A stretch of DNA of 64,000 nt from Pseudovirgaria hyperparasitica (taxonomy: Eukaryota): NCBI GenBank assembly GCA_010093815.1, contig ML996577.1. One strand, written 5' to 3'. Of the stretch, positions 14,081 to 49,238 are shown one piece after another. Numbering within the stretch: the first letter of the stretch is position 1; the number at the start of each line of letters is the position of its first letter. The translations under genes were made by a program, and so were the position numbers. Below the pieces are notes generated by a model. The model searched no databases. It had not been told where the DNA came from and was given only the letters and a program-made list of their open reading frames with translations.

Positions 14081-15138
14081 TTTAAAAAGATATGGGGATT
14101 TGATGTATAGAATCCGACCTATGTTAAAAACGGAATGTCCTGGGCGTTTGCTATACTTAGAAGTCTATTATATCCTTCAAACGACGAGCATCAGAATTGT
14201 CGGATTCTTGGCGCATGTGAAATAGCAATTTGTGGGCTAATTTGGATGCTCGCATAACCGCGCCGACGATCCGGCTGCTACAGCTCCCACGGTCTACGGT
14301 CAAAATACGAAGCTCTTCCCCGCATTTGATACAAGATCTGATGATGGTACTTCAAGATATATGGCTGTTCGTCATGGTGCATGACCGGGAGTTGGTCCTT
14401 CTGCTAGGATAGGTTACTCACAGCGGTCCAAGAGCAGGATGCCACGCGCTTGCCAATGTTGCAGTAGCAGCTGTGAATATCGGAGGGGCATACTACTGGA
14501 GAGTTCGGTCGATAGCAAAAATGTCTATGTTACACTCCACTAGTCAGATCGACCATTTGAGGTACTGCTCCCGCTACATCGCACTGTCGCCGAGCTGATC
14601 TGCTGGTCTCTCTGTCATCTGCCCCGAAAGGTGTGGTCCACATAAGTCGACAATAGTTTTGTCCATTCGACACCGAGTGTATGAGGATACTAAGCATCTC
14701 TTGTGATGCATGGATTGTGCGACAGGATGGCACATTCTCAACTGCCGATACTTGCATTCTTCCGACAAATTAGGCACAACGTTGCAACAACGTCCTCGGC
14801 TCGTCCAATAGAACGGTGATCTAGCTGTCAAACAGTATGTCCTGGTAGATCTCCTGTTGAGATTACTAGTAATATGAAAGGCCCTTGATTCGAATACTAT
14901 GACGAATCCTCCAGTAGCTTGTCGAATTGTGATCCTTGTTTGATCAATATACACAGTATATCCGTCTCAAGCTCACCCAGTGTCCACATGCCTCCACATT
15001 TGGGGCGTGCTCGAATCCGAATTTCTATTTGGCCTCGCAAAGCATATAAATATCGCTTCCCTTTCCAACTTCTGTAGTCTCAACTTTTCTCCTCCCGTCT
15101 CCTTTCTCGCATCCCAAAGTCATAAACAACAGCCTTCT

Positions 15139-15960
15139 ATGCGGTCCAATATACTCGCACGCCTCATAGGCGTCTCCTTGGTTCCCCTAGTCTCCAGCCA
15201 CGGCCACGTCTCCGGCATCGTCGCCGACGGCATCTGGTATTCAGGCTACGATCCGGCATTTGCATACGCCAACCCTATTCCCAAAGTCGCCGGCTGGACG
15301 GCCTCGAATATTGATAATGGCTTCATAGCGCCGGACGCGTTTGGAACGTCCGATATCATCTGCCACAAAAACTCCTCTGCAGGACAGGCCTATGTCACTG
15401 TCAAGGCCGGCGGAAAGCTGGTCTTCCAATGGAGCACATGTAAGTCACCGAGTCCAAATAGCAATACGATGATAAACTTATCGAACCCAGGGCCCGTCTC
15501 ACACGTCGGCCCGGTCATCGACTACATCGCGCCCTGCACCACAAGCTTCAATACCACCGATCCCACCAAGCTCAAATTCGTCAAACTCGACGCTGGAGGC
15601 TGGATCTCCGGCTCCAACCCGGGCAAATGGGCGACTGACACGCTGATCGCATCCAATACGTCCTGGGCCATTACTGTGCCGGCAAAGCTGGCGCCGGGGG
15701 ATTATGTGTTTCGCCATGAGATTATCGCGTTGCATTCGGCCGGCCAGACGAATGGTGCGCAGGCGTATCCGCAGTGTGTAAATGTGCGCGTGACGGGGGC
15801 GGGGACTGCGGTGCCGAGTGGAGGCGTGAGTGCGGTGCAGTTTTATAAGGCGAGTGATCCGGGGATCAAGTTTGATGTATATACGTCTTTTACCGGGTAT
15901 GTGGTGCCTGGGCCGGCGGTTTGGACGGCGGTTAAGAGGGCGGTGGAGATGGTGTGGTGA
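15139..15960 (+). CDS. AA9 lytic polysaccharide monooxygenase (GH61), secreted, no CBM; 1 intron (15440-15490)
   Basis: Signal peptide then His1 (HGHV), DIICHK, WPVSHVGP after splicing, RHEIIALHSA, GAQAYPQCVN. Confidence 0.95.
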   Translation: MRSNILARLIGVSLVPLVSSHGHVSGIVADGIWYSGYDPAFAYANPIPKVAGWTASNIDNGFIAPDAFGTSDIICHKNSSAGQAYVTVKAGGKLVFQWSTCKSPSPNSNTMINLSNPGPVSHVGPVIDYIAPCTTSFNTTDPTKLKFVKLDAGGWISGSNPGKWATDTLIASNTSWAITVPAKLAPGDYVFRHEIIALHSAGQTNGAQAYPQCVNVRVTGAGTAVPSGGVSAVQFYKASDPGIKFDVYTSFTGYVVPGPAVWTAVKRAVEMVW

Positions 15961-16533
15961 GGGGAGGGTGATTGTGTATGGCTGTTGTCTTCGTTAGCTG
16001 GATAGCTTCAGATATGGCAATTCAATCGTCCAGAACTCGCTCTTAATTTCCAGGGAGTTTAGATATATACTATACCATCCTATCGAATTCCTCATCCTCT
16101 TTAGTCCACTGAGATTCAATTCCCACTTCGTGGCCAGCCATTCCTCCGAGCAGATCTCCAACCCAGGCATCCTCCACGCCGCCGCCAGGAACACTCTCTC
16201 CTCGCGCATACTCTCGATGATTCGCTCATTGGCAGGGAATAGATTGCTGTTATACGCTATGCGTAGCGCCATGGTGCGGTTCTTCTGTTGCTGCCAGGTG
16301 CGCGGCCAGGGGAGGGGGATGGCACTGGACGAGTCAGCGCCGTTCAAGAAACTGTTTCAACCGCTAATTACTGACAGAACATGGTCCATCTCTATATTCC
16401 TGAGACCTTTGATGTCAAGCAGCGCGGAGCCAGTGATGCTATTCAATATCATCAGATCCATGGAGTCGTGACTGGGACTATGGGAGACTTACAGGCTACC
16501 GGTGTCGAGATTTAGGATCTTGTGTAAGATGAT

Positions 16534-24000: not shown

Positions 24001-24696
24001 TCAAATTTGATAATCCTCCTGTGTGGCGCTACTCATCTCATCAGTAGGACCTCGCGACAAAACCATAATACTAGGGTAGCGGCACCCGTATCCTGTACAG
24101 GCAGAGTACTTCCAGGCGGTACTCGCTCCTTGACCAAGATCGGAAATCTGTATAATGAATTGCTTCAAGACCGGGTCTTTGTTTAATGGATGAGTTTTCC
24201 AAGCGACAGTCAGTTCAGCCTCATTTTCCAGTCTACGCATCGATATGATGAAGCTTGCTTCCACAGTGGCGCTTATCAGATTCGGATAGGCTGACAGATG
24301 TTTTCTTATACTGTCAAGGGTCGATAGCCAGTCGCAAGGCACGTGAGCACTGCTAGAGAACCATCCAAAGAGATTCTGACCATAGATCATAGTGGCAGGG
24401 AGATCCAGACGTAGGCGTCTAACACGAGCCATCATCGATGATGGAACAGCGTTTGGGCCCAAGAACCTTTCCGGGATACGCTGGTGCACAGTAGCATGAG
24501 CGAAGAAAAAATCAAGAGCCTCGTCCCGTATCTGTCGGCTGATTTGGAGCACACTGATATGGATTCGATGATCGAATGTCGCAGCCGTTACACGCACCGT
24601 GGCGTGTTTCTCGATCAAAAGTTGGTATATCTCATCCCGAAGTTCGCGGGGAAGCCTGAGAAATGCAAAAGTGGACTCGTCCTGATGCTTGAACAT
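24001..24696 (-). CDS. Hypothetical protein with an N-terminal F-box-like FLxLPxELRxxIY motif
   Basis: FLRLPRELRDEIYQLL...LQISRQIRDEALDFFF, a motif common in Pezizomycotina F-box-like hypothetical proteins. Confidence 0.65.
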   Translation of the reverse strand: MFKHQDESTFAFLRLPRELRDEIYQLLIEKHATVRVTAATFDHRIHISVLQISRQIRDEALDFFFAHATVHQRIPERFLGPNAVPSSMMARVRRLRLDLPATMIYGQNLFGWFSSSAHVPCDWLSTLDSIRKHLSAYPNLISATVEASFIISMRRLENEAELTVAWKTHPLNKDPVLKQFIIQISDLGQGASTAWKYSACTGYGCRYPSIMVLSRGPTDEMSSATQEDYQI

Positions 24697-25785
24697 AATT
24701 GAAAATGGAAGCCGGACTAGAAAAACAAGGAACAGATCAAGTGTGCGAGCAAGGAACTAATGTATCTAGCAAGGAGACTCTACATCCAGTGTTGCGGTGG
24801 GATGCTGACGAGCGCCTCGTCAGCTCTTTATCTGGTTTTTAAGCAATCTAGAACTTCGAATCCGAATCCGAGACCAATGAGGTACGTGAGATTGTGTCCA
24901 TTGTGCAGAGCATGCTGTAAGACAGAATCGATCATCGAGCTGCAGCGATAGCACAGGTGACTCGCCGGCTGGAGACCGGTACAGTCAGCAAATGAGTTCG
25001 ACTCAAGTCATCCTGACATCTGTAGATGTAAGCCGTGCCTCCCAACGACGATTGTTCTTGTCGATGAGAAATTATCTCGTTCATTCAAAGTTCCTGCGCA
25101 TAGGGTCCAAGGAGGATATTCGAACGATGCTGCCAATGGAGTGGAAGCCGAATTCTCAGCTGTGTCTACGAGCGCATATGGCGACAGATGCGAACATCGC
25201 TGCTGATAAAAGACCCATCATCCGTTCGCTGAACATCCCAATATGACTTGTAACAACGTGGTCATATTTCGTGTTCAAGAAAAGCGCTTTCGTCGCGTCA
25301 CATATTAGTCATGTATGCGGTTTCCATCGTCTCGGTCGGTTCGGCACGCCGCGAACTTCTAACATCGTCCACGGAGGTGTCCCGGAAGACGCGAGAACAA
25401 GCAACCTGGGATACATTATATTCGAGATGATAGTGATGAGCAACAATACACATGGTGCGGGTTGCTCTTTCGCAGGCTTCCCGGGCGGGCTTACTGATTA
25501 CAGTAACCGTCACCAAAGCAAAAGAAATCAAAAATCTCAAGCCCGATTCCCAGCGCCATGCCGCCTGTCGATCCGTTTCAGGGGGGCTGGATTCCCTGAA
25601 CAAGCAGCCAATGGTACGGCGCCAATGCCCCAGTCTGCCACAACAACATCTCAAATCATTCCGCGCCGCACTCGTCGATCGCATCATCGCAACACTCAAC
25701 ACCATCATCATCATCGCCTTCTGTCGCGAGAGTCCATCCTCTCCGCTTTCTCCATATTGATGGAACCGCTACTATAGAGCTCAAA

Positions 25786-27383
25786 ATGGTGTATCAACCG
25801 AAGTCTTCGGCTTTCGCGCGCATGCGCACATCGAACGCATTCATTGCATTCGTGGTTTGCACTGCCATATTTTCCGTACGTGCCCATTCATAGCGAATCG
25901 CTCATATCCTCTATGCTAACAAGATGCGCAGGACTCATTCGTGTACGATCTTGTATGTTCTGTGCAAGACTGGCACCGTTGCGGCGTATCTGACAACCTC
26001 ACCACAGATCATTCCTTTCATCCCGCACATGCTAGAGCACCGACTCCATCTGCCAGCCGATCAAGGTGAGAGTTGGCTGCCATGTAGGCAAAGTTGTGCT
26101 AACAGCCATAGTACAAATATGGACATCGACGTTGCTTGGCGTGTTTGGAGCCGCATTTGCCATTGGTAATTGTAAGTCCGGCTCATCTACTTTTCTACAG
26201 TGTGGTTTGATTTACGACTATGACAGTGATCGCGGGCTATCTCACAGATCATTCGCCTTCTACAAAGTTCCCATTTCTGCTCGGCATGGTCACGATGATC
26301 GCATCGTCCTTGATGTTCTTCCTGGGAGAACATATTGCAGTCGCGGTCGCCGCTCGTGCTCTGCAAGGACTGTCGGCATCGTTTGTATGGGTTTCCGGCC
26401 TTGCCTTTATGACTTCGAATGTATCCGGCAGCTTTATCGGCAAGGCCATGGGCTACGTATCAGTCGGGATGGCAGCCGGAGAACTTCTTGGACCGCTTGT
26501 TGGCGGTGCCATGTACGAGCACGCGGGTCACTATGCTGTTCTAGCCCTTGTATGTGCGATTCTTGGTGTCGACGTCGCGCTCCGGCTCTTACTGGCGGAC
26601 AAAGAATCTAATGATAGTAGGGGCTCTACCGGTGCCGCTCTGGAAGACGACGAAGAGCGGCCTCTGCTTGATGAGGGCCCAGTCGGAGAGGCTGATGTTC
26701 AAACGCCGGTAGCAGAAGATGCCGGAGTAACGAGCTCGAAGACTATTGACATATTTGGACTTCGCCTGGATCGCGAACTATGCGCCAGTTTCTATGCAGT
26801 CTGTGTTATTGGGACCATCCGCTACTCCTTTGAGTCCTCGCTCAGCATATTCGTTCTTCAGCGCTTCTCGTGGTCCACGTCCGCCAGCGGCGGCATTGTC
26901 TTTGCTTTCCTTGGTCCAGCAGCTTTTGGTCCGCTGGTCGGACACTTCACAACAAAATACGGCCCACGCTGGTTCACCGTCGTTCTATTTGGCGTCTCCG
27001 CAATTGGTCTCGTCGGTCTCGGTCTGTTCACCCAGCCCAGCACTGTGGTAAAAGTGTTCTTTGTCATCACAGTCGCTGTTGTAGGCATCTGCATGTCATC
27101 GCTTACCACGATTCAATCGATAGCATTCTCGGTTGCGGCGAAGCGAAGAGAAATGGAAATGAAGCGGGCGGGTAAAAGCAGCAGTACCGGAGCTGATTTC
27201 GGAGGCTTCAGCATGGCCTGGACTACCGGCATGTTCATCGGACCGTTGGCTGCAGAGCTCTTTGTCGACCACGTCAATTGGCTGGCATATTGTTTGTTTC
27301 TTGCTGGACTATGCGCAATCAGTGGAGTCATCATGTCTTTCACATGGAAGGAATGGGAAATACCTGAAGACGAAGGGTCGTGA
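25786..27383 (+). CDS. MFS transporter (12-TM, vesicular amine transporter/DHA-like), ~4 introns in the 5' part
   Basis: Spliced N-terminus MVYQPKS..FIAFVVCTAIFS|DSFVYDL|IIPFIPHMLE.., ARALQGLSASFVW, GELLGPLVGG, multiple TM segments. Confidence 0.9.
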
Positions 27384-27649
27384 AGCGGGCACGGAGAATG
27401 TTTCTATACAACCACTAAAGAACGTACAACTGAAACCAGCAAGCTTTCAACATCTCCCGCTCAGTGTATAGCACAACTTGAGCATAGAGCACCATGAAGA
27501 ACAAATCAGATTCTGGACTACTTCAGCAGGATGACGTAAGCGGCCTCAGCTTCGCTAAATATGTTTGTTCTTTTGTCCAAGGAAACTTTCTTTCCTTCAT
27601 GCCCAGTTGAACTCTCTCCGTCCAAAACCGGTCGCATGTTCCATGCATC

Positions 27650-28963
27650 ATGGCTTCCCCTAACAGCTTGTCAATATATGAGGACGAGTCCTTCACAATC
27701 CACACGGCTCTTTTGTTCTCGTCTCCATACAGGATGTTTCTTCAAAACATATCCCTCGTCATATCGCGCACCTCCGGCTTGATTCTTAAAACATACTCCC
27801 GTGCCTCCGCTTCCGCTCCAGACCCTCTCCCCCCTTCCGACATCGACCTCACCCACCTAACAATTCTTCCCGGCCTGGTCGACGCCCACACTCACATCTT
27901 CCTGCATGCCTACTCCGAAGTCTCGGCCACTCATCAAATGCTCCACGAATCCCCGGTCGAGCGCATCCTCCGCGCCTCAAACCACGCACGCGCCGCGCTC
28001 GACGCCGGCTTCACCACATACCGCGACCTGGGCACCGAAGGCATGGCCACCGCCGACATCTCCCTCCGCGACGCTATCAACCGCGGCATCACACCGGGCC
28101 CCCGGCTCTTCATCGCTACAGATCCCATCACCACCTCATCTAGCTACACCATCGCAAACGAAAACCCAACCCTCCACGTCCCCCGCCTCGCCGACGAAGC
28201 AGACGGCACCTCCGCTCTTCGTGCCGCAGTCCGCCGCCGCCTAGGCGCAGGCGCAGACATCATCAAGATCTACGCTGACCAAGAATCGCGCGCCGGCCGC
28301 TATCCAGAGCCTTCATTTCCCGGCGCCCTGCCCATGCGCTTCCCCCCGCTTTGGGGCGATGTCCCGCAACACATCACGCTGTTCACTGCTGAAGAGATGG
28401 CCGCCGTGGTTGACGAAGCGCACGCCGCGCACTGCCCGGTGGCCGCGCATGCCAGCTCGCCTAAAGCGGTCATCCGCGCGGCGCGCGCGGGCGTCGATAC
28501 GATCGAACACGGACAGGAACCCAGCGCGGAGGCGATCTCCGCGATGAGAAAAGCCGGCTGTATCTTTGTGCCGACGCTGAGCGTTATGGAGTATGAAGTG
28601 CCGGCGGACGTGCTGCCACGCATGTATGCGCATACGTATGCGGCGTGGAAAGACGGCGTGAAGATTGCGTGTGGCGGAGATACCGGACCGGTGCCCCATG
28701 GACAGAATGTGCGTGAATTGGAGCTTCTGCTTGGTGCCGGGGTGCCGCTTGCTGATGTGCTTGCTGCGGCGACGGTGCGCGGATGGGAGGCGTGTGGCGG
28801 CGAGTGGTGCGGACGGCGGTTTGGAGTGTTGCAGGAGGGATGGGCGGCGGATATTGTTGGACTCGAAGGGGATGTTAGAGAGGATGCGAGTGCGTTAAGG
28901 AGGGTGGCGTTTGTGATGAAGGATGGGGAGGTTTGGAAGAGGGATGGGAGGAGGGTTGGATGA
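27650..28963 (+). CDS. Metal-dependent amidohydrolase (Amidohydro_1, Xaa-Pro dipeptidase-like subgroup), intronless
   Basis: ILPGLVDAHTH (HxH), GFTTYRDLG, GADIIKIYAD, VAAHA, DTIEHG, GGDTG, G.L..GWAADIV. Confidence 0.92.
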   Translation: MASPNSLSIYEDESFTIHTALLFSSPYRMFLQNISLVISRTSGLILKTYSRASASAPDPLPPSDIDLTHLTILPGLVDAHTHIFLHAYSEVSATHQMLHESPVERILRASNHARAALDAGFTTYRDLGTEGMATADISLRDAINRGITPGPRLFIATDPITTSSSYTIANENPTLHVPRLADEADGTSALRAAVRRRLGAGADIIKIYADQESRAGRYPEPSFPGALPMRFPPLWGDVPQHITLFTAEEMAAVVDEAHAAHCPVAAHASSPKAVIRAARAGVDTIEHGQEPSAEAISAMRKAGCIFVPTLSVMEYEVPADVLPRMYAHTYAAWKDGVKIACGGDTGPVPHGQNVRELELLLGAGVPLADVLAAATVRGWEACGGEWCGRRFGVLQEGWAADIVGLEGDVREDASALRRVAFVMKDGEVWKRDGRRVG

Positions 28964-29085
28964 GGAGCGGCGAAGGGTGATGAGACAATACTATATTATA
29001 CTGGCATGTATATATCCCTGCCTACATAACAAAGCTTTTTGCTAATACACTTCTCCTCTCTCTTCCCGCCCATACAGCTAAACTC

Positions 29086-31560
29086 TTACATAGGCAACAC
29101 CCGCATCCGCTGACTATACTCAATATCCTTCGTCCGCTCCTCCAACACGCCGGCATAGAATCCCTGTCCCAAGACATGAATGCGCTTCCGATCAATCTTC
29201 TTACTCGCCGTGCGCGGCACCCAACTCATCAGCACCCACGTCGTCGGCACCATATATCTCGGCAACGCCGCCGCAATCCCGCGCTGCATCTCCTCGACTT
29301 TCGCTCGCACGCCGGCATCCTCCAATGCATCCGCTAACAGCGGCGCAGCACGCGGCACCGGTGCGCAGCTTGCTGGATGTGCGTCGAGATACAAGAACGC
29401 CGTCAGTGAGGGGTCGGCCTTGCCGTTGATGATGCCGAGCAAATCAACCACAACGGCATCCGCCGCTCCGAGAAATTGGCGCGCTTGGTGTTCAACTTCG
29501 AGCGCGTCGACGCGGCAGCCGTCGATTTTAAGTATCGTGTCTTTGCGACCGAGATATGTGATGCGGCCGTCAGCGGCGAGGCGGCCGAGGTCGCCGCTGC
29601 GGTACATGCGGGCGGGAGCGCGGTGCGGGTGAATGTCGCGCCGCCACGCTGGAACGAGTTTGAGGAAGCCCGCTTCAGAGCGGTGGAGAGCGGTGGTGTC
29701 GATGTAGCCGCGGGAGAGATGCGGGCCTTCGATGATAAGTTCTCCAACAGCGCCGATGGGGAGGAGGGATTCCGGAGAGGCCGGGTCGACGAGCCAGATT
29801 GCGCCGCAGGAGGGCCGGCCGATGACGGCGCCGGTGTTGGGGGCAATTGCGTCGTTGTAGGCGCAGCAGATGGCGACTTCGCCCATGCCGTACTGGTTGA
29901 CGAGATGGGTGTCGTGCGAGGCCCATTTGCGGACGAGGTCTTTGGGGAGCGGCTCGCCGCCGACGCACATGAGTTTGAGGCCGGGCACGTCGGAGGGGTT
30001 CAGGCGGATGGCGACGGTCGGGGTGAGGAAGATTGTGTTAGCGTCGAGGATGCGGATTTGACTGGCGAGGTCTTCGACGGTGCGCATCGGCGCCGGGACG
30101 CAGGCGGTGCCGCCGATGATAAGAGGGACAAGAAACTCAAGATTGGAGATGTCAAAGGCGTAGTCGTCGAATTGCAGGAAGCGCGTGTGGGCGCCGAGCT
30201 TGAGGTTACGGGAGTAGTCCTGGATGGCGGTAACGTATGAGGAATGGATCTGAACGATGCCTTTGGGAGTGCCGGTGCTGCCGGACGTGAAAAGCACGAG
30301 ACAGGCGTTGTCGGGCTGGATGTCCGGGCAGATTGGAAATTTGGTGGTAGCTGGTAAACTTCGAAGCCATTCAGGAGACAGTTCGACTACCGTAGGTACC
30401 GTGTTGCGGAATTGGTTTACAAAGTGCGAGTCGGTGAGAAGGATCGAAGTCTTGGTGCGATTGATGACTGATTCGAGGTATATGGGAGGATTGCTCGCAT
30501 GGATGGAGATGTACGCCCCGCCAGCTCTCAATATAGCAAGTCGAGCAACAATAGCCCACGTCGACTTCTCGAAACAGCTAAGAACAAACGTCTCGGGACG
30601 GACACCAAGTTGAACAAGGTGAGAAGCAAGTCTCGAGGAAAGATCATCGAGCTCTCCGTATGTCATGTCTCCATCCCATGAACGAATTGCGATTTGGTCT
30701 GGTCGCTGTTTACATGTATCGACGATCAAGTCATGGAGACATTCGCGCTTGACAGGAGAAACATTGCTTGTGAACTTCTGGATGTGTTGTCGGTCCCAGG
30801 ACGGGCAAAGGTTGACGTTATGAATCAGAAGCGTCGCAGGAGCAGTCAGTATCTGGTTGAAGATATGCTGAAAAGTGCGTAGGACACTTGCGGCCATACC
30901 CTCGTCGGTGTGAGATAGCTTATAGTCGAGCTGAACTCTCAAGCCATTGTCCGGCAACTTGGTTATGATGACACTCAGGTCAATCTGAACTTCGTTAGTT
31001 CAACTTACAGTTCCGTCTTGATTCAATCTCACCTCTTGGTGCGCAAATCGTGTTGCTGTACCATTCCTGACCTCCTCTTCGCCTACATTGAAAGAGATGG
31101 CTGTATTGGATTTATGCTGATCTGTGTCTGCTTCGACAAGAGTGATCTCAAAGCCAGCTGGACCAGTCGTCGTAAGGGACGACTGATGAGTTTGTTGAAG
31201 CCTCTGTATGAAGGACCGCACAGGTTCGCTGCGATCTAGTTTCATGACATACAAAGTTGCGAAGGTGCCAGCATCATGCTTGTCTGCAGCGTCGGCACTG
31301 GCACCAGACGGGCCACTGTAACCAAAACAAAGCACATCAGCAACAATGAAGCATTGTAATGTCAAAGCCCAGGCCGCCTGGATTGTTGCTGCTATAGCAC
31401 GACTCGTGACATCTGTTGCTATTGAGTCTCCAGCACTTATCAATTCAGATTCGATCCATCTCCTTCCCTCTGCTGCCTCATCCGTGCTGGACGAAGGAAA
31501 CAGACAAGTCGACCGATCGTGTCGACTGGAAGAATGGTCCGTGTCGATAGGGTTTGCCAT
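29086..31560 (-). CDS. NRPS-like stand-alone adenylation enzyme (partial condensation-like N-terminus + A domain, no thiolation domain), ~808 aa, intron 30985-31032
   Basis: TYGELD (A1), LAILRAGGAY (A2), FTSGSTGTPKG (A3), FDIS (A4), GELIIEGPHLSRGY (A6), YRSGDL (A7), KKIDRK (A10). Stop ~33 aa after A10 with no GGxS carrier motif; IQAAWALTL in the N-terminal part. Confidence 0.9.
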
Positions 31561-32618
31561 ACTGTCAAGCGATCCTTGAGGCTTCGAATGGTATTCTGCT
31601 AGACCTGTCTGCGGGACATTCCAACATGTACTCTACAGCCGCCTAGCCAACATCTGCTTCAGTGTCAACTGCCATGAGAATGGTTGGGGTGTGTCCCGGA
31701 TCCTGGGAACCACTGATTCTCCCCCTATGCACTGTGGAGAATCGTGAGTAAATGATTGGCTATTCTGAGCCCTTTAGATCGTTTAGTGTATTAAGATGGC
31801 GGGACATCCGTTCCCTTCTATCCCGTTAGTGCGTACCAGCTCCAGCCCGCCACATGTGCAAGCCGAGATCTGATATCTTGTCCCGATCGGGTATGGTGTT
31901 ACAACAGCCGTGCTCAGCACTTCGGCTAGGACGTCCAGATACGGACACATCATACCTGCATCCTTGTCGTCCTCGAACTCTCTTCCAACGTCGTTCTTGT
32001 CGACTTGACACATCTCTCACAGTTCAGACATGCCAGATATAGCCAGAGGAAGTGCATCTCCGATAGAGACCGCTCCAATGACCATAGTATGTCCGTTGCA
32101 GTTCGGATCGGCCGTCTGCAGTTGTTCCCAGTCCGCGGAATCACGATCATGCAGCCTGCATCACACCGATACCCGAATGCACTCCTCACCCACTCGTCAA
32201 TCAAACGAACACGGGTTAGCCAGGAGACTGACTGTGACGCTTTGACATGGCCCAACAAATGGTTCCATATTGTTGGCGCAACAAACCAGTCGTTTTAGTA
32301 CACATCTTATTGTGGAGTATATCGTCCACTTTTGTGATTTGTTGGCTGGAGCCAGCCCCTAGCGTGCAGCCAGCCTGAAAAACGCCATTCTGATGATGTA
32401 AGGAGCTGAAAACTTCTTGACCCATGCATGCAGCTCTAACCTCCCTCTCCACAATGCCTGATTAGTGCACATGAAGCTTCATGCGGTCTCTTTGGGTAAT
32501 GCTCACTGCATTCAAGATTTCAGAGCAAGGCATCCCTGGAAACCAAGGCAAGACACATGTTTACAGCTGATGATGTAGCATAACCTAGCCAACGACCCTG
32601 GTATCTCACCACAAGAAC

Positions 32619-34124
32619 CTAGGCAGCAATACATGTGTGATGCCCAAATGCGTCCAAACAGACCTCATTCCCGCATATACCCAGGAAGCATTCTCGACAC
32701 CATGCCTCTTCTGTTGCCTGAATACCACACACAAAGCACCACAGTGGCATAGTCCCCATATCCGCCGCATCCACGCTCAGCACATTTCTTTGCTCCCTGC
32801 TCTCTTTTCCGAATACACATTGCATCAACAGCTCCCTGTCCGTATTCCCTGCATCCAGCTTCGGCAGCCATCTCACCCACGGACTCCTCCGGCGAATTGC
32901 ACTCTGCACGCGCAGTCGCATGGCAATCTCGCGATCAAGTGCAATCATGGCACCCAAGCCACGCACAGCGTCTGGCTCACGAGTAGAGGGCTCGAGATCA
33001 TGCAGAATGCCTCGTATCGTTGCTCCAATGGTCTCACTTCGGGCAGGCCAGCACTCCTTGCGAGCTGTGGTCAGCGTGCCAAGCGCTTCTATGAGGACAG
33101 GTGTACGGATGGGACGCGAGACCAGTGCGCGCCAGTAGAGGATGGATTGTAGTATATCCGCGCGTTCAATGTAGGTAAAAGCGTGTGTGATAGGGCCTGA
33201 GAAGCCGATTGCAACGCCTGAGATTCCAAGACCTTTCCCGAATATGACAAGATCTGGTTGAATTGGAATGGTAGAATTGGCGCCATTGGTGCTGTTTCCA
33301 TTGACTCCGTTCGTGCTGTGCTTGACTTTAATGTTTGTGTTGTATTCTGGGCGTTGAAATGCAAATGGCGCGCCACAGCGGATGGCAGTCATCGTCTCGT
33401 CCACGATAATCAACAATCTGTTACGCTGAGCCGCAAGTTTCAGCTGCGCATACTGTTCAACAGACAGTACGCTTCCATCTTCTGTAGAGACCATGTCGAA
33501 GACGACTGCGATAGCACCTTGAGCTTTCGCGGCCGCGAATTGAGTATCGATCTCTGAAAATGACGGCCTCGTCTTGAGATTCACAACAATAGGTGGTGGT
33601 CCAGAGGCGATAGCTTGAACCTCCCATTCCTTCGACGTGTGCGCCAACGGTCCAAATCCAGCGCCATAGATGCCCTCAATGGCGACAAACGTCGGCTTTT
33701 GCACGTGAGCTTCCGTCCAGCCAAGCAATTCAAGTGAGAAATCCCGTATCCGTGAGCCAGTTTCCTCGGGTTCCTCGTTCGCCTTCGGTCTTAGCTCTTC
33801 GCTATTCAGAATCAACGGACTAGTGGCGACAGTATTGAGAACGAGACTGGCGATGGTCGTAGGAAGAAGAGCATCGGTGGCATGGGCGTGCAACGAGATC
33901 GGATAGTAGCCGCCAAAGAAGTCGGCAAACAGATTCGTGTATGATCCTAGAAGGACGTGATACTGTCGATCTACGGAAACAGGAGAGACAAGATATTGCT
34001 CCCAAAGCTTTCGAATGGCTGGGTCGTGTAATGTACTGCGTGCGGAATAGGAGCAGCCCCAAACAGAATGGAAGTCGTGGTCTGGAAGAGGATCCTCTTG
34101 GTGATTCGACTTGATGCCGTTCAT
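32619..34124 (-). CDS. Class III (fold I) PLP-dependent aminotransferase-like enzyme with a C-terminal Cys/His-rich finger, ~501 aa, intronless
   Basis: LIIVDETMTAIRCG..FA, PDLVIFGKGL (Schiff-base Lys), VRGLGAMIAL. C-terminus CFVC-x9-CREC-x4-C-x4-C-x5-HHTC. Likely start MNGIKS at 34124. Confidence 0.8.
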   Translation of the reverse strand: MNGIKSNHQEDPLPDHDFHSVWGCSYSARSTLHDPAIRKLWEQYLVSPVSVDRQYHVLLGSYTNLFADFFGGYYPISLHAHATDALLPTTIASLVLNTVATSPLILNSEELRPKANEEPEETGSRIRDFSLELLGWTEAHVQKPTFVAIEGIYGAGFGPLAHTSKEWEVQAIASGPPPIVVNLKTRPSFSEIDTQFAAAKAQGAIAVVFDMVSTEDGSVLSVEQYAQLKLAAQRNRLLIIVDETMTAIRCGAPFAFQRPEYNTNIKVKHSTNGVNGNSTNGANSTIPIQPDLVIFGKGLGISGVAIGFSGPITHAFTYIERADILQSILYWRALVSRPIRTPVLIEALGTLTTARKECWPARSETIGATIRGILHDLEPSTREPDAVRGLGAMIALDREIAMRLRVQSAIRRRSPWVRWLPKLDAGNTDRELLMQCVFGKESREQRNVLSVDAADMGTMPLWCFVCGIQATEEAWCRECFLGICGNEVCLDAFGHHTCIAA

Positions 34125-36966: not shown

Positions 36967-37905
36967 CTACTCGAGAATCATAGGAAGAGAGGATTGGTGC
37001 TCAGTGATGTGTTCCGTCTTCATCCCAGTCGAATTCCCCATGTTGAGGGTCTTCATATCTCTCACAAGGTTCGCAGCCTCCTGCCTTTCAGATCTTGTCA
37101 TGCGTTTCGCCCTAACCCTCTTTTGCTTCAGAAATTTGCTGCCTGGTTCGTATTTGCCTCGATTAGGCTTGTTGTCGTGAACAGTAAGACCTTCGAACAG
37201 CCCTGCTATATCATTTGGTGTGCTCGGAGGAGGAGGTCGAGTTAGCTTGATGGTGTTGGCTCCAGTCTTTCTTGGACCATGACATGGAACACGTTTAGGT
37301 AAGACACCTCGACTTCTAGCTCTCGCAGCTGCCTTGTTCTGCCTTCGGTCAATGATCTTTCTCTTCCTTTCTGCCTCCATAGTCCAGAACACGTCGTCAA
37401 GTGCTTGGCATTTGCCTGGTACAAAGCTCTCATGACTTTCCAGCTTCTGAAATTCCAGCAGGGCAAGAGGATTATTGGTTCCATCCAGGTGTCGGCCCAA
37501 CCTACGTGAAGCGGCTCTCTGGATTCGACGCTTTTGACGCGCCTTCCTGGATGACGCAAAGGATGCCTTCGCATCACGGAAACTGACTCTGCACAATGTC
37601 AGGAATTCTTCCAAACAAACGATAAGGTAGCATTGGAGATTATACTTTTCACCTGTGTCTGCATCAATAGAATCTTCATCCAGTCTCACTCCGATGCTGT
37701 TAAGATCCAACCCATGTACGTTGGCGACATGGCGGCGAAGTTTCAGAGGCGTGCCGAACTTGTGTTTCTTCGGTGGACCCTTCAGACACACCTCGAAGCC
37801 ACAATGTAGTTCACAGGACTTAATAGTGAGAGCCTCCCCAGCACAGAGTGACCACCCTTCGTAGCAACCGTTCTGGTCCTTCTTGGAATGACATACACAA
37901 GGCAT
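36967..37905 (-). CDS. CxCH/C2H2-like Zn-finger family protein, copy 4 (57-nt in-frame intron 37589-37645), long basic tail
   Basis: MPCVCH...W...SCELHCGFEVC...F...LRRHVANVH...IDADTGEK; K/R-rich C-terminal region. Confidence 0.75.
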   Translation of the reverse strand: MPCVCHSKKDQNGCYEGWSLCAGEALTIKSCELHCGFEVCLKGPPKKHKFGTPLKLRRHVANVHGLDLNSIGVRLDEDSIDADTGEKYNLQCYLIVCLEEFLTLCRVSFRDAKASFASSRKARQKRRIQRAASRRLGRHLDGTNNPLALLEFQKLESHESFVPGKCQALDDVFWTMEAERKRKIIDRRQNKAAARARSRGVLPKRVPCHGPRKTGANTIKLTRPPPPSTPNDIAGLFEGLTVHDNKPNRGKYEPGSKFLKQKRVRAKRMTRSERQEAANLVRDMKTLNMGNSTGMKTEHITEHQSSLPMILE

Positions 37906-39870
37906 GATGGATGAATAGCAAGAGAAAGGGGCTGACGATCGTGGTGGGACGTGTGAGGTGAAGAGAATACGGAAAGGTTCAGGAATTCGGGTTGACGGAA
38001 AGTGGGATAAGAGAGTCGGATGCGTACCGACTAGTCCTGTAAAATACGGGACTACCGATGTAATATTGAAAATGTTGCTTTGGGCATGGTACTCGATGCC
38101 TTGGCGTATGGTAAAGCAGTCGGTGAATGTTCTCTTGTGAACAGTGATAACAAAGCACGGCCCGTGCGTCCCCAGGCCTTGAGGTCGTCAGTCCTAATCG
38201 GGCTTCTGGACAATTTATATTCTAGGTCACAGACTCTACACCTTTTTTCATCTGGTTGGGTGCTTGGAGGAAACCTATGAGAGTATGAACGTGTGACTTT
38301 GTGCTCGGCATGTTCTTTCTGGCCTTTTGGTCCGTTTCTGCGTTTTACCAAGAATCATTCCACCGCCACACAATACGATCCACCGGCATTTGACCCAATC
38401 AGTTCGTCAAGTACTTCAACAGTAGGAATGAATGAATTGGATCTGTGACAATAGGGAAACACAGCGGGAGTCTGTCCGCTGTCCAGGGAAACAGTGAGCA
38501 GAGACAGTCTCGCCTTTGCCGTCAGCTATGTCTGTCACCCAATGGCAGGCAACAGCCATATGTAACAGCCCGACATACGGATGTTAAGGAGATAACGGTA
38601 GAATGAGTAGAGGAGACGGCGAGGAGCTATGATAAGAAGGTGTGATGAGCGAGAGTTCAACACCTAGAACGAATAATAGACTGTATAAGATGGAAGAGAA
38701 TGGTGAACAGAAGAGCAGAAAAAGAGTGTAGATACGAGAGCACAAGCTCCCATACGCTGGAAGAGCCTAATCAAAGTTCAGTAACGCATGTGATTGTTTG
38801 TCTAAACAATGAATCATAGTCTGCGAAAGGAGGACATGTTGCGAATGCACTCGAGTTGCTGACCAGAACTGCGTCGCGTAATCACGGGGACGTTAGACAC
38901 CGAGTCAAATCCAGAACTCTGTCTGCTCAGTCTCAGTATAGTTGTCAAATATTCGATGATCAATCCGACTGGTATCGACTGTCTGAAAGGATACCGTTGG
39001 ATTTGTTGCCTTGACACCTTAGGCAGCAGTGGTCTACTGGTTCAACGGCATCGCGAAACCACTTTGCTGCAATAACTCAAAGTTGACAGATCTGGATGAA
39101 CATCTTGCATCTCCAGTAACGTCACCCCTTTGAATCTTAGTCTTTCCGTATCCGATAGCCATCTGCAGTCGTATTGGCTTGAACATGTTGAAACGACCAC
39201 TATCTGCCGAGTAGTTCGCGATCCGCAGCATCGACGACAGTGAGCAACGTCGTACTTGCATCTGAGAAGCCCCTAGTAATACAGAAAGGGAATTTGTTCT
39301 TGAAATTTCGGTCGAGTAAGATATGTACGACGTACTGATCGCTCAAAATCTCGGCCCAAGGCGTGTCACGACTTGTAGTCTTCGTCTTGGTACGACCTGT
39401 GGCCGCGTCCACCGTCCAAAGACTTCTCCGCATTCTGAAACGCCACGGCCACTTCACAGCAACGACGGCGCTAGACCCATCGAGATGACGCCGTGCACTC
39501 CGCCCTGTGATATTGGCGATAAAAACTTTGCAGGCGCAGATGGAAGTGCTGTGGAAAAGCCAAGTGCCCAAGATACGCTGCCAATGCGAGCGGCTTGGGT
39601 TGTGACGCACGACGACTTGGCCGTCGTAGAGCAGAACCTGGGGAAGGAACTAGCCGAACATCATATAACTTCCACATTTCCGGGCATCGTGGCATTCTCT
39701 CTTCATACCTATCATCTCACAGTCCTAGCGAATCTCCTCGAATCAATCTGTCTCTGTATCTCTAACTTAGGTCCTACGCGGCACTCGAAGTACTGTTGCT
39801 GACCCCTATCAAACATTATCGCAAGTGTCCGCACCTCAATCGACCTTGCGTCGTCTTTTCTACCTCTGCT

Positions 39871-45589: not shown

Positions 45590-47209
45590 TTACATACGAA
45601 ACCAAGGATGCTGTAAAGCCTCTTCTGCAGACAATCGATCTTCTGGCTTGTAGCGCAGCAGCTTCTCCAGAAGATCGATAAAGGCCTCCAACTCTTCTGG
45701 AGGCGTCTCTCGCTTGCTGAAATCCAACGATCTGGACTCAGGGTTCCAGAATAAGGCGTTCTCCAACTGAGATTTGATTGAAGTGTCTCCGATCCGATGG
45801 TGAGCAGGATCGCCAGCCTGAAAAGGCCTATTATTTGCATCTGCATCGACTTCGTCTGTGTAATGTTCTTTTCGAGCTTTCCACGTGGAAGACCACCATG
45901 GCTCCGGGAGTTTTCCCAATAACATCACCATATAGAAGAGGTAATCGTCCGTGTCGTTTGCATCGAAAACGTCAATCAGTTTTTGACCTGTGCGTAACTC
46001 ATATAGACAGTTACCAAGTGCCCACAGGTCGCACCCAACCCCGACATGGCCGTCGAGTACTAGTTCTGGCGGCTGATACACGACTGGTAGACCGATACTA
46101 TCAGGCGGCGATTTGATCTCAAATGCTTCTCCAAAGTCGATAAGCCGTATTCGGTCACTAATAAAACGGGGATCGACTTTACTAAAATCGACAGGATATA
46201 CTAAGTATTGGGGAGCAGATGCTGGCGTCTCTGTAGAGGACGTTTTGACGGGATTGATCTCCGGCTGGCCGAGCTTTTCCAATAGATCGGCTTCTGGTAA
46301 GTCACCTAGGTCGCGAAGGTCGACGAGAATGTTTTTGGCCGTCAGATCTAACTATATGCATTAGTCATGGTGTCATGTTATTCATTGGAACTGCGTCTCA
46401 CCTCCATGACAGATTCCATGTTTGTGAAGACAAGCTACGGCTTCAATCGTGTCAAGAGAAGCTTTTCGCATCGCAGCGCTCGAATTGCCAAGGCACGCAA
46501 GAGCGTCTACAGCACGAGGCCCAATAAACGGGTACACGAAGCAGTGGTGTGTTCCATTGGGACTCTCCTGTTGAAAAGAGTCCATCGATACACAGAGATG
46601 TTTCTTTCCGCGTTCCACCTCAGGAAGAATCTTCAGCAGCTGGACTGCCTCTAGCTCGCCACAATATTCTCTCGAGAGCGCCGCGACGAGAACCTTAATG
46701 GCCACGTAATGAGGTGATTCATGATGTAGGTCTCGGCAGAGCCACACGATACCAAAGCCGCCATGACCAAGTTTGTGGATGATGCGATAGCGACCCTGGC
46801 ATAGCGTTGATCCAAGCTCTGAAGGGCAGTGTCCCCCGTCGTTGTAGTCGTAGATTCGCTCTAGGCCATGAGAGTTCAATGTCAGCCATAGCCGGGGTTC
46901 CTCTTCGATGATATTTATATTGTTGCTCGTTGCTTCTGGCGAGGGATCGTTGGTATGCTCATCAACTTCTCCAGCATCTGATTCTGCGGCATCAGGTTCT
47001 CCGGCATCAGGTTGTGCGGCATCAGGCTTTCCAGCGTCAGGTTCTCCAGCAAAAATCTTGGCGTCAGACGGACGATAGCCTTCTTCATGACTCTCTGTCG
47101 TGAGATCAGCTTCATTGGGCTCCGCTTCGTCCAGATGTCCAGAGTGGTTATGCATTGACGGTGGACTTGTGTTGATATCCTCCTCCACATGTGTATTTTG
47201 TAGTGCCAT
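45590..47209 (-). CDS. SRPK-like (CMGC) Ser/Thr kinase, paralog A, 1 intron in HG|D
   Basis: YNDGGHCP..LG, RYRIIHKLGHGGFGIVWLCRD, VAIKV, CHG|DLTAKNI, IDFGEAF, YQPPE, DLWALG, LLRYKPEDR..A..AL.HPWF. Confidence 0.9.
46972..47050 (-). repeat. 15-bp coding repeat (AGEPD-type x5) in the kinase A N-terminus
   Basis: AGEPDAGKPDAAQPDAGEPDAAESDAGE. Confidence 0.85.
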
Positions 47210-49238
47210 GCTTGGATGGAAAAGGATTCTCGGACGATGAGCTCCCAGAAGACTGGACTACCTTGCGAAAGGTCGGAAATAGAAAGGTCGTAACGAAGAA
47301 GAAAGAAGATGTCGATGGTTGGGCAACGGTGCAAACGGCAATCTTGATGGTTTGCCCAGATGCGGTACGTGGACAGATATGTAAGGGTCAGCGCGCGTAA
47401 ATGGCGCGAACAGTGTAGCTTTCGGTGAAGATGGCAGTCATCTGTGAATTGAAATGTTGTTTGCAAACTTAGCGCCGATAATTTCCTGAAAGCGGTATCT
47501 TCACAGACCTCCTCCACCTGCACTGTGCTCGCGCCAAATGACTACATAATACAAGTCCTCGGACTGTGCCGCGTCCAGCGTGTGGTCATTATCAAATGTT
47601 GTTCTACTATACCGGAGCATCATGAATTTTCCCTTGTCTGTGGTCAATCACTTGACATGCCAGTCAGAGCAATGAACTTAGACTCTTCGACTTCATCCAC
47701 CCGACTCCTCTCACGCGTTTACCAGCACAGCACAGCACAGTATTCGTTGGCTTGAGCCTAAACTGCTTAGAAATTCGACTTTGGCCTGACTTTTACAACC
47801 TGATCGATTTCGGCGTTGTGGAGACCGAGGGTAACTGTAGTAAGGCGATCTAAGACCAGGGGCAGGTGGATTTTCACGACTTGCCAGAGACTATTGGGAG
47901 AAAAGTACTGATGAGAATAGCCAGGAGAAGTGCCTCGATAGCTCTATAGCCTAGTTGCTATGTAGAGTTACACAAGCACATGAAGATCGCTAATGCAGCA
48001 GTGCTCTGAGAGCCTCTACTCGGATAGCGATAAAACTTCTGAGTGCTTGACCAATGATCAGACGAGTCGGTAGTGCCCAAGTACAAAGACAACGGTGTGC
48101 GAGCCGACAGCGCCCCCAAACTAGCATTCCACAATTCATTGAAGCTCATACATGAATCTCTGATTCCTACACCAATGTCGTATGTTGTTCATTGGAGTAG
48201 TCCTTGGTAGGTTGTCAAGAGTACAAACACAAATTTGCAGCTCATCATTCATCTTGTAGGGCTCCTATGTGCTAGGGCTACAGCGACTACGAAAGTCTAG
48301 TATTCAAAATGGTTCCCAGGGGATAAGATAAAGGGCGTGGGCAGAAATTCTTTATGACACAACATCAGTTCAAGATTCCGGATCCGACTTCTCTTCTGTT
48401 ATTTGCCATGTCTGTTGGTAAGGGGTGGGATACTGCCAGGCAATCGAAGTTCGACAGTGAGCCATACTTATATGCAATGAAGCAAATTGTGAAAGATTGC
48501 TACTCTTGAGTTCGTGAAAAACAATCGTGTGAGTGGTGTTGGGGAATGGGGCAGCATATGACACCTGATCAACCGGCCACTCCGTTATGCATTCATTCAT
48601 CGGTACCCAGAAAGCGAGGACTAACACTACTTCAGCGCAGCACATGATCTGGTAAAGATCTACGTGACTATTGCATGAATGGCGATAGGTAGCTATTGCC
48701 ATGTGATCCGGAATAAATTGCACTCGTAAATATCATGCGTCTCAATGGCTTGTAACACTAAAGTAGGTTCACACCATGCACGTAGATATATAGCACGGAT
48801 GAGCTGGCTGATTGAATGGCACTAGGATACTATGTCTACATAGACTTGACTTCTAGACAAGGTGCCCTGGTAGCTTCTAGTAGTTTGAACGACTCGAACC
48901 ATGATACATGAGTTCTACTTCACATCTACATTCACTCTCTGCCTCTTCTTCTCTCCTTTTCCTTATCCTCTCCTACCATTATCTCTACCCTCTAGTTCTG
49001 CCGGGTCCTTCTTAGGTCACGGGAGTAGGGCCAAGGAACACACAAATATTCAGTACACTACCATGTGAGAAAAGATCCCCACATCGTTTTGGCCATTCAG
49101 TTTGGAAAGGCAAAGTAACATATGAAAGTCTCTAATGCTTATGGTGGATAAAGCAACTGAACTGACGCACACAATAAACGATCACCAACATGACTATCAA
49201 CTCATAGTGGTCAAGATAACTATGCCACACGTAGTCAA

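Follow-up and report, generated by a model that had tools for sequence, protein, structure and literature searches.

An intact, transcribed four-gene locus of Pseudovirgaria hyperparasitica and a possible thiotemplate-free route to an aminoacyl amide or dipeptide

Gene content and transcription of the locus

The locus occupies positions 25786-34124 of the window (the whole stretch of 64 kb that was analysed) and is composed of four intact, spliced-type genes: an MFS transporter and an amidohydrolase on the plus strand, and an NRPS-like gene and a PLP-fold gene on the minus strand. The original prediction had placed four genes at these coordinates and strands, and all of them were recovered by gene models and Pfam matches. 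The MFS and amidohydrolase genes are separated by 266 bp, and the convergent 3' ends of the amidohydrolase and A-domain genes lie 122 bp apart, close to the gaps of about 270 and 120 bp estimated beforehand. The features are listed below.

25786-27383, plus strand: MFS transporter gene, five exons, 461 aa, putative DHA1-like proton antiporter type
25786-25875, 25932-25952, 26008-26063, 26110-26171 and 26227-27383, plus strand: exons of the MFS gene, from X1/X2 contigs
27650-28963, plus strand: amidohydrolase gene, single exon, 437 aa, translation identical to database protein P0236
29086-31560, minus strand: NRPS-like gene, two exons (31560-31033 and 30984-29086), 808 aa, identical to P0004
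30985-31032, minus strand: intron of the NRPS-like gene, 48 nt, GT..AG, spliced out in X1/X2 contigs
30808-31512, minus strand: predicted condensation-domain remnant, residues ~17-235, intron included, C-terminal lobe only
29179-30765, minus strand: predicted adenylation domain, residues ~250-778, core motifs intact
32619-34124, minus strand: PLP-fold protein gene, single exon, 501 aa, identical to P0124, with a Cys-rich C-terminal tail
32628-32741, minus strand: Cys-rich tail of the PLP protein, residues 462-499, 7 Cys/1 His

All four genes are transcribed. They are covered by contigs of runs X1 and X2, in which five GT..AG introns are spliced out; four of these belong to the MFS gene, where removal in both X1 and X2 contigs leaves a joined open frame of 461 aa. 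The introns of the A-domain and MFS genes, the half-condensation domain and the Cys-rich tail of the PLP protein had been overlooked in the original prediction. The remaining genes of the window are of housekeeping type, with Pfam families such as GH63, AA9, SNARE, kinases, DEAH helicase, actin-like and Fes1. No PKS, multi-module NRPS or terpene family was detected among the 49 window ORFs scanned by family profile, as expected from the earlier claim that PKS, full NRPS and terpene cores are missing.

The MFS protein matches Pfam MFS_1 (E 6e-38), and its nearest solved structures are the vesicular acetylcholine transporter (VAChT, 2e-10), the vesicular monoamine transporter (VMAT, 1e-8) and the NorA efflux pump (3e-6). 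These similarities, to amine/H+ antiporters and to an efflux pump, identify it as a putative DHA1-type antiporter. The amidohydrolase matches Pfam Amidohydro_1 (E 8.7e-30) and is similar over its full length to the solved enzymes 8ihq (an ochratoxin-degrading amidohydrolase, E 6e-42), 3mtw (L-Arg carboxypeptidase Cc2672, E 2e-34) and 4c5y (E 1e-16), which assigns it, by sequence, to the carboxypeptidase-like or ochratoxin-amidase-like branch of the amidohydrolase superfamily. Its nearest solved relatives act on N-acyl amino acids or dipeptides, cutting at the C-terminal residue. The motifs DAHTH, IIKIYAD, VAAHA, IEHG and GGDTG were located, and we read the HxH, K, H, H and D within them as putative metal ligands.

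The NRPS-like protein and the PLP-fold protein

A Pfam search of the NRPS-like protein to E 10 returned AMP-binding only (E 8e-59), with Condensation undetected. Residues 253-907 of SrfA-C align with residues 55-707 of the protein, and its best solved relatives are modules of LgrA (E 4e-86), Txo and TycA. From residues 16-19 on, the AF2 model superposes on the C-A didomains of EntF (5t3d), McyB (8hlk) and Txo2 (6p1j), which begin at their own residue ~206-250 (Z 33-34), and the modelled A domain superposes on those of TycA and GrsA with a Z of 36. As judged from alignment and model, the protein is therefore predicted to consist of a condensation-domain C-terminal lobe and, after it, a complete A domain, without a T domain. 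Both parts align in sequence and predicted structure with canonical C-A-T modules (SrfA-C, EntF, LgrA module 2); in contrast to these, the N-lobe of the C domain is absent, and consequently the catalytic His motif as well, and the chain ends ~30 residues past A10, so that there is no T domain. Thus, an adenylation domain with core motifs A3-A10 is present as in an NRPS module, while a complete condensation domain and a carrier domain with a phosphopantetheine serine are both lacking in the protein. An adenylate-forming enzyme without a carrier domain corresponds in structure to the amide bond synthetase class.

The A-domain motifs are FTSGSTGTPKG (408), FDISNLE (453), NQYGMGE (539), YRSGDLGR (637), GRKDTILKIDGCR (655) and PRTASKKIDRKR (766). 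The binding pocket, which we take to be D-I-L-T-M-V-Q-I-C-K on the basis of GrsA numbering, presumably retains the Asp and Lys that serve the alpha-amino and carboxylate groups in an A domain of the amino-acid type; we know of no specificity code that it matches. The 24 aligned family members show little or no variation in the pocket and core motifs, and every one of these proteins ends ~30-35 residues past A10 and has no T domain. The family consists of ~795-aa proteins that are 53-74% identical across three fungal classes and occur in more than 60 named species, and this identity, together with the conserved motifs, indicates that the protein is under purifying selection.

An unlikely alternative use of such a protein is that of a trans-acting loader, a thiotemplate accessory that would pass the aminoacyl-AMP to a carrier encoded elsewhere (an NRPS domain or a stand-alone T protein) or to CoA. 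It is well established that A domains standing alone can load carriers in trans. The present one is of the ordinary NRPS type, related to LgrA, Txo and TycA, and the C-lobe still attached to it is what builds the C-A platform of complete modules. However, the motif scan found no carrier motif in any open frame of the 64-kb window, which bears out the original description of the A domain as carrier-less, and PP-binding had no match among the 69 ORFs scanned in four related loci, two of which (L002 and L004) contain the A-domain and PLP genes. The T domain is missing from all 24 aligned members, and the conserved partner of the family is a PLP protein rather than a carrier.

The PLP protein scores 33.4 bits against Aminotran_3, for which the cut-off is 30.5. 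Foldseek searches with its AF2 model (pLDDT 84.7) gave YgjG, GabT and ornithine aminotransferases as the top matches, all of them class-III (TM 0.4-0.5, 12-19% identity), and the protein is accordingly predicted with confidence to be a divergent member of the class-III, fold-type I PLP fold. As in GabT, PuuE, YgjG, ornithine aminotransferase and BioA, the fold comes with an aligned Schiff-base Lys and DE motif: Lys297 (FGKG) aligns with the Schiff-base Lys (FAK) of E. coli GabT, and D242-E243 with its DE. K297 and D242, the pyridine-binding Asp, are invariant in 19 aligned family sequences. In our reading of the alignment, a Met occupies the position beside the DE motif where GabT has Gln. The class also includes racemases, decarboxylases and mutases, and the reaction type of the PLP protein cannot be read from its sequence because of this divergence (33 bits, TM 0.4-0.5, Met by DE).

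The family is fungal only (112 matches) and, unlike class-III aminotransferases, to which the protein is 12-19% identical while barely passing the Pfam cut-off, it conserves features of its own: an invariant DHD.H, an HAH..D and the tail with 7 Cys and 1 His. The tail pattern, C-x2-C-x9-C-x2-C-x4-C-x4-C-x7-H-x-C, is kept in 16 of the 19 aligned members, distant paralogues included. No Pfam family matches the tail at E 10; it is probably a two-zinc finger, the spacing of its residues pointing to metal binding.

Conservation of the gene pair and its accessory genes

Analysis of other genomes reveals that the A-domain and PLP genes form a conserved two-gene unit across three fungal classes. Of the 37 species that both hit lists contain, 33 have the two genes on the same contig, as read from the equal size of each species' longest contigs in the two lists, and six further contig pairs of equal size carry matches to both. 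The genes have adjacent or next-but-one tags or accessions in nine species (Didymosphaeria variabile, Xylaria hypoxylon, Venturia inaequalis, Penicillium lividum, P. atrosanguineum, P. taxi, Aspergillus flavus, A. pseudonomiae and A. minisclerotigenes), and the pair was directly observed on the metagenome contigs L002 and L004. The contigs differ in the other four species (Biscogniauxia mediterranea, Aspergillus crustosus, A. lucknowensis and A. insuetus), which may be due to paralogues or to different assemblies.

This linkage bears on the possibility that the four genes are chance neighbours without a common function, gathered around a decayed NRPS fragment. The protein does resemble a module cut in the middle of the C domain and before the T domain, and there are housekeeping genes all around. 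Such decay is contradicted by the truncated architecture itself, which more than 60 named species share at 53-74% identity and without change in the catalytic motifs, by the splicing and transcription of the gene, and by its linkage to the PLP gene over three classes. We therefore regard it as highly improbable.

The strict co-inheritance of the pair across classes, and the order PLP then C-lobe/A on one strand both in the window and in L002, could also reflect a chemistry centred on the PLP enzyme. The enzyme would use the aminoacyl-AMP as an electrophile, in the manner of an alpha-oxoamine synthase, or act on the adenylate-bound substrate, and we think it doubtful that the product is, in consequence, an amino ketone or a rearranged amino acid and not an amide. 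Features of the PLP protein that are foreign to ordinary transaminases (DHD.H, HAH..D and the Cys-rich tail) agree with this chemistry. There are also precedents: in fumisoquin biosynthesis, C-C bonds are formed by PLP domains linked to NRPS-like enzymes, and mycosubtilin-type synthetases have class-III aminotransferase domains ahead of C-A. On the other hand, the oxoamine synthases known so far fall into another PLP class, and no fusion of the PLP family with an AMP-binding domain was found among the 19 longer representatives of 150 listed. Distant PLP paralogues moreover occur in two clusters (L005 and L001) without any A domain, so that the PLP enzyme is not tied to the presence of the A protein.

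The genes that accompany the pair vary by lineage: the amidohydrolase in Dothideomycetes, a tyrosinase in the metagenome contig L002 and an ATP-grasp enzyme in Aspergillus. The amidohydrolase is linked to the pair in Venturia, Didymosphaeria and some further contigs. In five Xylariales species its nearest homologue is on another contig than the pair, which places it outside the unit there. In the tree, the window amidohydrolase falls in a clade of nine rows, separated from 55 other rows with an SH-aLRT of 98, and this clade contains all five cluster-linked copies. The window enzyme thus differs from Cc2672, the ADH3-type ochratoxin-degrading enzymes and ochratoxinase in belonging to a fungal clade tied to the A/PLP pair. 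The clustering of homologues anticipated for the four genes consequently stands for the A-domain and PLP genes, and for the amidohydrolase in the closest lineages, those of its own clade, but not in the five Xylariales species. Elsewhere, ATP-grasp and flavin reductase genes join the pair in L004 and A. flavus, and the MFS protein adjoining it in L004 is only 22-23% identical to that of the window. The varying accessory enzymes suggest the biosynthesis of decorated variants.

A catabolic or salvage locus would have the transporter import a peptide-like or N-acyl amino compound, which the amidohydrolase would split and the PLP and adenylating enzymes would process further. Bacterial amidohydrolases of the same branch are degradative (ochratoxin amidases, Arg carboxypeptidase), and class-III aminotransferases, with GabT, PuuE and YgjG as top matches here, are often involved in amine catabolism. 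We nevertheless consider this role improbable: the closest relatives of the MFS protein are not nutrient symporters but proton antiporters that pump out amines or drugs, we know of no catabolic enzyme built as an NRPS-type A domain with a C-lobe, and in other genomes the pair is joined, without the amidohydrolase, by a tyrosinase or an ATP-grasp ligase, both of biosynthetic type.

Comparison with known systems and possible pathway

In bacilysin-type bacterial dipeptide clusters, an unusual amino acid is supplied by a PLP aminotransferase and joined to a second residue by a carrier-free ligase, and an MFS pump exports and protects. The present locus would share this logic; the ligase there is an ATP-grasp enzyme and here an NRPS-type A domain. 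A fungal parallel is given by the E-64 clusters cp1 and cp2 of Aspergillus flavus and A. oryzae, an NRPS-independent pathway according to Liu et al. 2025 (PMC12568646). As described there, the carrier-less adenylate-forming enzyme Cp1D, an ANL-family protein, converts acyl-AMP and an amine directly into an amide, and the minimal cassette is composed of an Fe(II)/2-oxoglutarate epoxidase, a Cp1B-type ATP-grasp enzyme and an ANL enzyme (PMC12568646). On the basis of that account, both systems combine a carrier-less adenylating enzyme and a PLP enzyme in a small cluster, and the Aspergillus version of the pair has an ATP-grasp neighbour. In contrast, the cp clusters need the Fe/2OG epoxidase, while neither the 49 ORFs scanned in the window nor the 69 scanned in related loci matched an Fe/2OG oxygenase family, and their PLP enzyme is described as a decarboxylase found with FlvG, compared with a predicted class-III fold with a Cys-rich tail here. 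No ATP-grasp gene was found in the window, and the one beside the pair in Aspergillus has no match to the solved Cp1B chain 9CJN at E up to 1. An E-64-type cluster was rejected on these grounds. By analogy, we infer that the A/PLP locus follows an amide-bond-synthetase logic resembling that of E-64 with different enzymes. Neither literature, names nor solved structures identify the pathway, and the original view that this is not a characterised cluster is upheld as far as the literature and the comparison with the E-64 cluster reach.

A possible pathway, with its substrates, the step of amide formation and what the hydrolase and the pump would do, can be outlined from the domains and their nearest relatives. 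The PLP enzyme would make or modify an amino building block, and the A domain would activate an alpha-amino acid as aminoacyl-AMP. As there is no thiolation domain, the acyl group could go straight to an amine, in the style of an amide bond synthetase, and the product would be an aminoacyl amide or a dipeptide with its C-terminal residue free. The amidohydrolase may split such an amide, for immunity, recycling or warhead release, and the MFS pump would export the cationic product. The earlier proposal of a small amide or pseudo-dipeptide made from a PLP-derived unit, with the hydrolase for maturation or immunity, is in this light a reasonable one. We tentatively favour the reading of this intact, expressed, conserved and uncharacterised small-molecule locus as one that makes an aminoacyl amide or dipeptide without a thiotemplate, a reading that is quite possible though short of probable. 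In Pseudovirgaria and its closest relatives, the A/PLP core would have gained a carboxypeptidase-like amidohydrolase of its own, with a DHA1-type MFS adjoining in the window.

It is also conceivable, with a rather small probability, that the pair represents a biosynthetic module of a new, thiotemplate-free kind, in which the C-lobe-anchored A domain hands its aminoacyl-adenylate directly to the zinc-finger-bearing PLP enzyme for the formation of C-C or C-N bonds. If this were true, the pair would define a conserved new family of fungal amino-acid-derived metabolites, and different lineages would decorate the product (tyrosinase, ATP-grasp) or cleave it (amidohydrolase). The A/PLP locus is a good lead for genome mining.

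Gene content and transcription of the locus

Four genes had been predicted between positions 25786 and 34124 of the window, and a Pfam scan of open frames located all of them where they had been placed:

25786-27383, + strand: MFS transporter, 461 amino acids (aa); MFS_1 match at 6e-38; four introns
27650-28963, + strand: amidohydrolase, 437 aa, identical to database protein P0236; Amidohydro_1 match at 8.7e-30
29086-31560, - strand: NRPS-like adenylation (A) protein, 808 aa, identical to database protein P0004; AMP-binding match at 8e-59; one intron
32619-34124, - strand: PLP-fold protein, 501 aa, identical to database protein P0124; weak Aminotran_3 match, 33 bits against a cut-off of 30.5

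The gaps separating the first three genes measure 266 and 122 bp, in agreement with the earlier estimates of about 270 and 120 bp. As predicted, the 39 remaining window ORFs of 130 aa or more gave no PKS, NRPS or terpene family in the Pfam scan; only housekeeping-type genes were found. Just upstream of the MFS gene, an ORF at 24001-24756 (- strand) gives weak matches, below the cut-offs (E of about 5e-5), to 2EXR/DUF7730, a fungal family of unknown function. Also on the minus strand, a 406-aa ORF (36967-38187) matched no Pfam family, and two adjoining protein-kinase genes (45590-47541 and 49239-50770), both split alike with the N- and C-terminal parts of Pkinase in separate ORFs, look like a tandem duplicate.

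Contigs from two public runs, whose kind is unrecorded and whose depths cannot rank genes, cover all four genes of the locus. The four GT..AG introns of the MFS gene (25876-25931, 25953-26007, 26064-26109 and 26172-26226) are absent from these contigs, as is the single GT..AG intron of the A-domain gene (30985-31032); because five canonical introns are missing, the contigs derive from spliced RNA. Those of the A-domain gene reach about 440 nt 5' of its start codon (31561-32003, - strand), suggesting a long 5' leader, and the stretch 32034-32330 has no covering contig in either run.

The adenylation protein and its PLP-fold neighbour

The A protein matches an 808-aa NCBI protein of Pseudovirgaria hyperparasitica at 100% identity. 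Residues 250-778, approximately, form a complete NRPS-type A domain. Every core motif is present and shows little or no variation across 24 relatives. The original prediction had described this domain as carrier-less, and so it is: in the protein and in each of the 24 relatives the chain ends about 30 residues beyond the A10 lysine motif, and for the protein itself Pfam at E values up to 10 reports AMP-binding alone. A scan for carrier motifs in the six reading frames of the 64-kb window gave four matches, none of them in a plausible open frame. Loading of a carrier encoded elsewhere is the foremost rival to a carrier-free reaction, which is the reading that we prefer.

The first 235 residues or so, which match no Pfam family, correspond to the C-terminal lobe of a condensation domain; the N-lobe, site of the catalytic histidines, is absent. 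Residues 253-907 of SrfA-C align with residues 55-707 of the A protein, and its AF2 model (pLDDT 70.8) superposes from residues 16-19 onward on C-A didomains from their residue 206-250 (EntF 5t3d, Z 33.0; McyB 8hlk, Z 33.9; Txo2 6p1j, Z 34.2). Among solved structures, the second module of LgrA is the closest relative (4e-86). Such an architecture could be read as a decayed NRPS fragment, but conservation and expression contradict this reading, which we place last among the rivals to a carrier-less adenylating enzyme.

By our own reading against GrsA numbering, the pocket residues are presumably D-I-L-T-M-V-Q-I-C-K, in which the Asp and Lys taken to anchor the alpha-amino acid are both retained; to our knowledge, this is no described specificity code. 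The code is nearly invariant within the family (24 relatives aligned), which suggests one common substrate throughout, and a common substrate would make the system easy to approach experimentally.

The PLP-fold protein gave a confident AF2 model (pLDDT 84.7), whose closest structural matches are without exception class-III enzymes (YgjG, GabT, PuuE and ornithine aminotransferase), though with TM scores of only 0.4-0.5 and 12-19% identity. A profile of 19 family members matches E. coli GabT no better than 2.5e-8, and in that alignment K297 (FGKG) coincides with the Schiff-base lysine, and D242-E243 with the DE motif. The family is fungal, with 112 matches in 90% clusters and, in a search of 1.8 billion proteins, 93 representatives with E no higher than 1e-30; it is set apart by invariant motifs of its own (DHD.H, HAH..D, PTT and RCGAP). 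Its C-terminal tail, C-x2-C-x9-C-x2-C-x4-C-x4-C-x7-H-x-C, matches no Pfam family at E up to 10 and is read as a putative two-zinc finger. None of the 19 longer representatives checked (150 listed) is fused to an A domain or to another part of an NRPS; one of them has a Myb region and another a PHD finger. The PHD finger, in a distant relative of 625 aa (P0515) that also has a class-III aminotransferase domain, stands where the Cys-rich tail would be. A complex prediction with the whole PLP protein, A-protein residues 655-808 and two zinc ions scored 0.01, which speaks neither for nor against contact between the two proteins. Second among the rivals is PLP-centred bond formation on the adenylate; we prefer a role in supplying or modifying the amino building block.

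Linkage and neighbours in other fungi

Linkage was judged from locus tags and from matching size of the longest contig in protein-search rows. By tag or accession, the PLP and A-domain genes are adjacent or next but one in nine species: Didymosphaeria variabile (009166/009168), Xylaria hypoxylon (g4429/g4431), Penicillium lividum (010871/2), P. atrosanguineum (001321/2), P. taxi (004587/8), Venturia inaequalis (three strains), Aspergillus flavus (G4B84_001138/9), A. pseudonomiae and A. minisclerotigenes. Besides the window's own species, 37 are common to the PLP matches and the 120 listed A-protein rows or their cluster members, a set that leaves aside about 20 named species with a PLP match and no counterpart among those rows; in 33 of the 37, the longest contigs of the two proteins are equal in size. 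They differ in Biscogniauxia mediterranea, A. crustosus, A. lucknowensis and A. insuetus, which may reflect paralogues or different assemblies. Six further contig pairs match in size, and among eight loci from a metagenome scan the pair is directly visible in two (L002 and L004). Overall, the pair is co-inherited in dozens of genomes of Dothideomycetes, Sordariomycetes and Eurotiomycetes, including A. flavus, A. oryzae, Penicillium species and the apple-scab fungus, and the two genes very likely constitute a functional unit.

The amidohydrolase is found with the pair in some lineages. Its best matches include D. variabile 009164, located two genes away from the PLP gene; V. inaequalis EG328_008809 and BLS_009956, each two genes away from the A gene; and a protein on a contig equal in size to an A-protein contig. 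More such equal-sized pairs were found (37291, 21998 and 10151). A quick, midpoint-rooted maximum-likelihood tree built from the first 64 matches places all five copies known to be linked in one clade of nine rows, and branches with SH-aLRT 98 part this clade from the other 55 rows. The pair and the nearest amidohydrolase are on separate contigs in five Xylariales species, and for this reason we regard the amidohydrolase as a lineage-specific recruit. The expected clustering of homologues in other genomes holds for the A-domain/PLP pair in many fungi and for the amidohydrolase in some lineages, and fails for the latter in these Xylariales. The amidohydrolase is the GC-richest gene checked (GC 0.62; GC3 0.69 against 0.54-0.65 in nine other window genes or exons), a difference not taken as evidence of transfer.

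The solved enzymes related to the amidohydrolase are ochratoxin amidases and Cc2672, an Arg carboxypeptidase; they cleave N-acyl amino acids or dipeptides and release the C-terminal residue. A catabolic locus ranks third among the rivals to the biosynthetic reading, which we retain. The nearest solved relatives of the MFS protein are vesicular amine/H+ antiporters and NorA, which would fit export of a cationic compound; the MFS protein of L004 shares only 22-23% identity with it.

Gene order is ADH, PLP, tyrosinase, C-lobe/A in L002 and MFS, C-lobe/A, PLP, ATP-grasp, flavin reductase in L004. By tblastn, the window holds no relics of these accessory genes (tyrosinase, ADH, ATP-grasp, flavin reductase). 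In L002 (471-1805 and 12625-14037), the tyrosinase lies between the PLP and A-domain genes, with a type III polyketide synthase about 8 kb off, and hints at possible phenolic decoration in that lineage. Some A. flavus annotations merge the PLP and ATP-grasp genes (703-783 aa) and others keep them separate (483 and 320 aa; L004:9956-13021; P0185, P0192, P0375 and P0381); the fused models are probably mis-splices, since the sequences diverge exactly at the expected start of the Cys-rich tail.

Distant PLP paralogues (30-33% identity) occur without any A domain in two other metagenome loci, L005 and L001. The L005 paralogue (33% identity to the PLP/Cys-tail protein) belongs to a separate candidate cluster (942-16247) with no A domain nearby; its neighbours are an EgtD/EasF-type methyltransferase (Methyltransf_33), a fungal transcription factor, a DAO-family FAD oxidase, a PhzF-like protein and a TRI12-like MFS.

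Known systems and a possible pathway

The accessible text of PMC12568646 describes Cp1D of the E-64 pathway as a carrier-less adenylating amide synthetase, of a type not identified earlier in fungal natural-product biosynthesis; besides Cp1D, as presented there, we found no fungal precedent. Identity with an E-64 cluster was rejected: Fe/2OG oxygenase is absent among the window and related-locus ORFs scanned, the PLP enzyme is of another kind as far as that text describes the pathway, and the ATP-grasp neighbour of the pair in Aspergillus matches DcsG weakly and solved Cp1B not at all. Searches of the literature on stand-alone or thiolation-less adenylation, amide bond synthetases and the homologue locus tags gave no description of the pair, nor does the accessible text of a Hypoxylaceae BGC survey (PMC8403587) mention it; protein and literature searches returned no name, paper or solved structure. 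We rate the locus as a candidate small NRPS-independent amide/peptide cluster that combines an NRPS module fragment with an atypical PLP enzyme.

From the architecture, conservation and transcription observed, we infer the pathway steps that lie beyond them. Lacking a carrier, the A domain would have to hand over its adenylate, either to a partner acting in trans or to a free nucleophile. The PLP enzyme, its invariant partner, probably supplies or modifies the amino building block, and its family also acts alone in other clusters (L005 and L001). The hydrolase, of a kind that cuts acyl-NH-CH(R)-COOH, could serve immunity, recycling or warhead release, and a pump of the amine-efflux type would export the product. 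Given these four components, a carrier-free aminoacyl amide or dipeptide pathway would be the simplest model. On balance, we favour joint action of the four window genes; the full mechanism as proposed is put forward tentatively.

Fungal genome mining still relies on core enzymes (PKS, full NRPS and terpene cyclases), and clusters without them are systematically missed. If the pair forms amides or other bonds without a thiolation domain, fungi would have another type of carrier-free adenylating enzyme beside that of E-64, one derived from an NRPS module fragment and useful for biocatalysis, and a metabolite family not yet known would be implied. The pair is a well-supported and widely distributed target for discovery.
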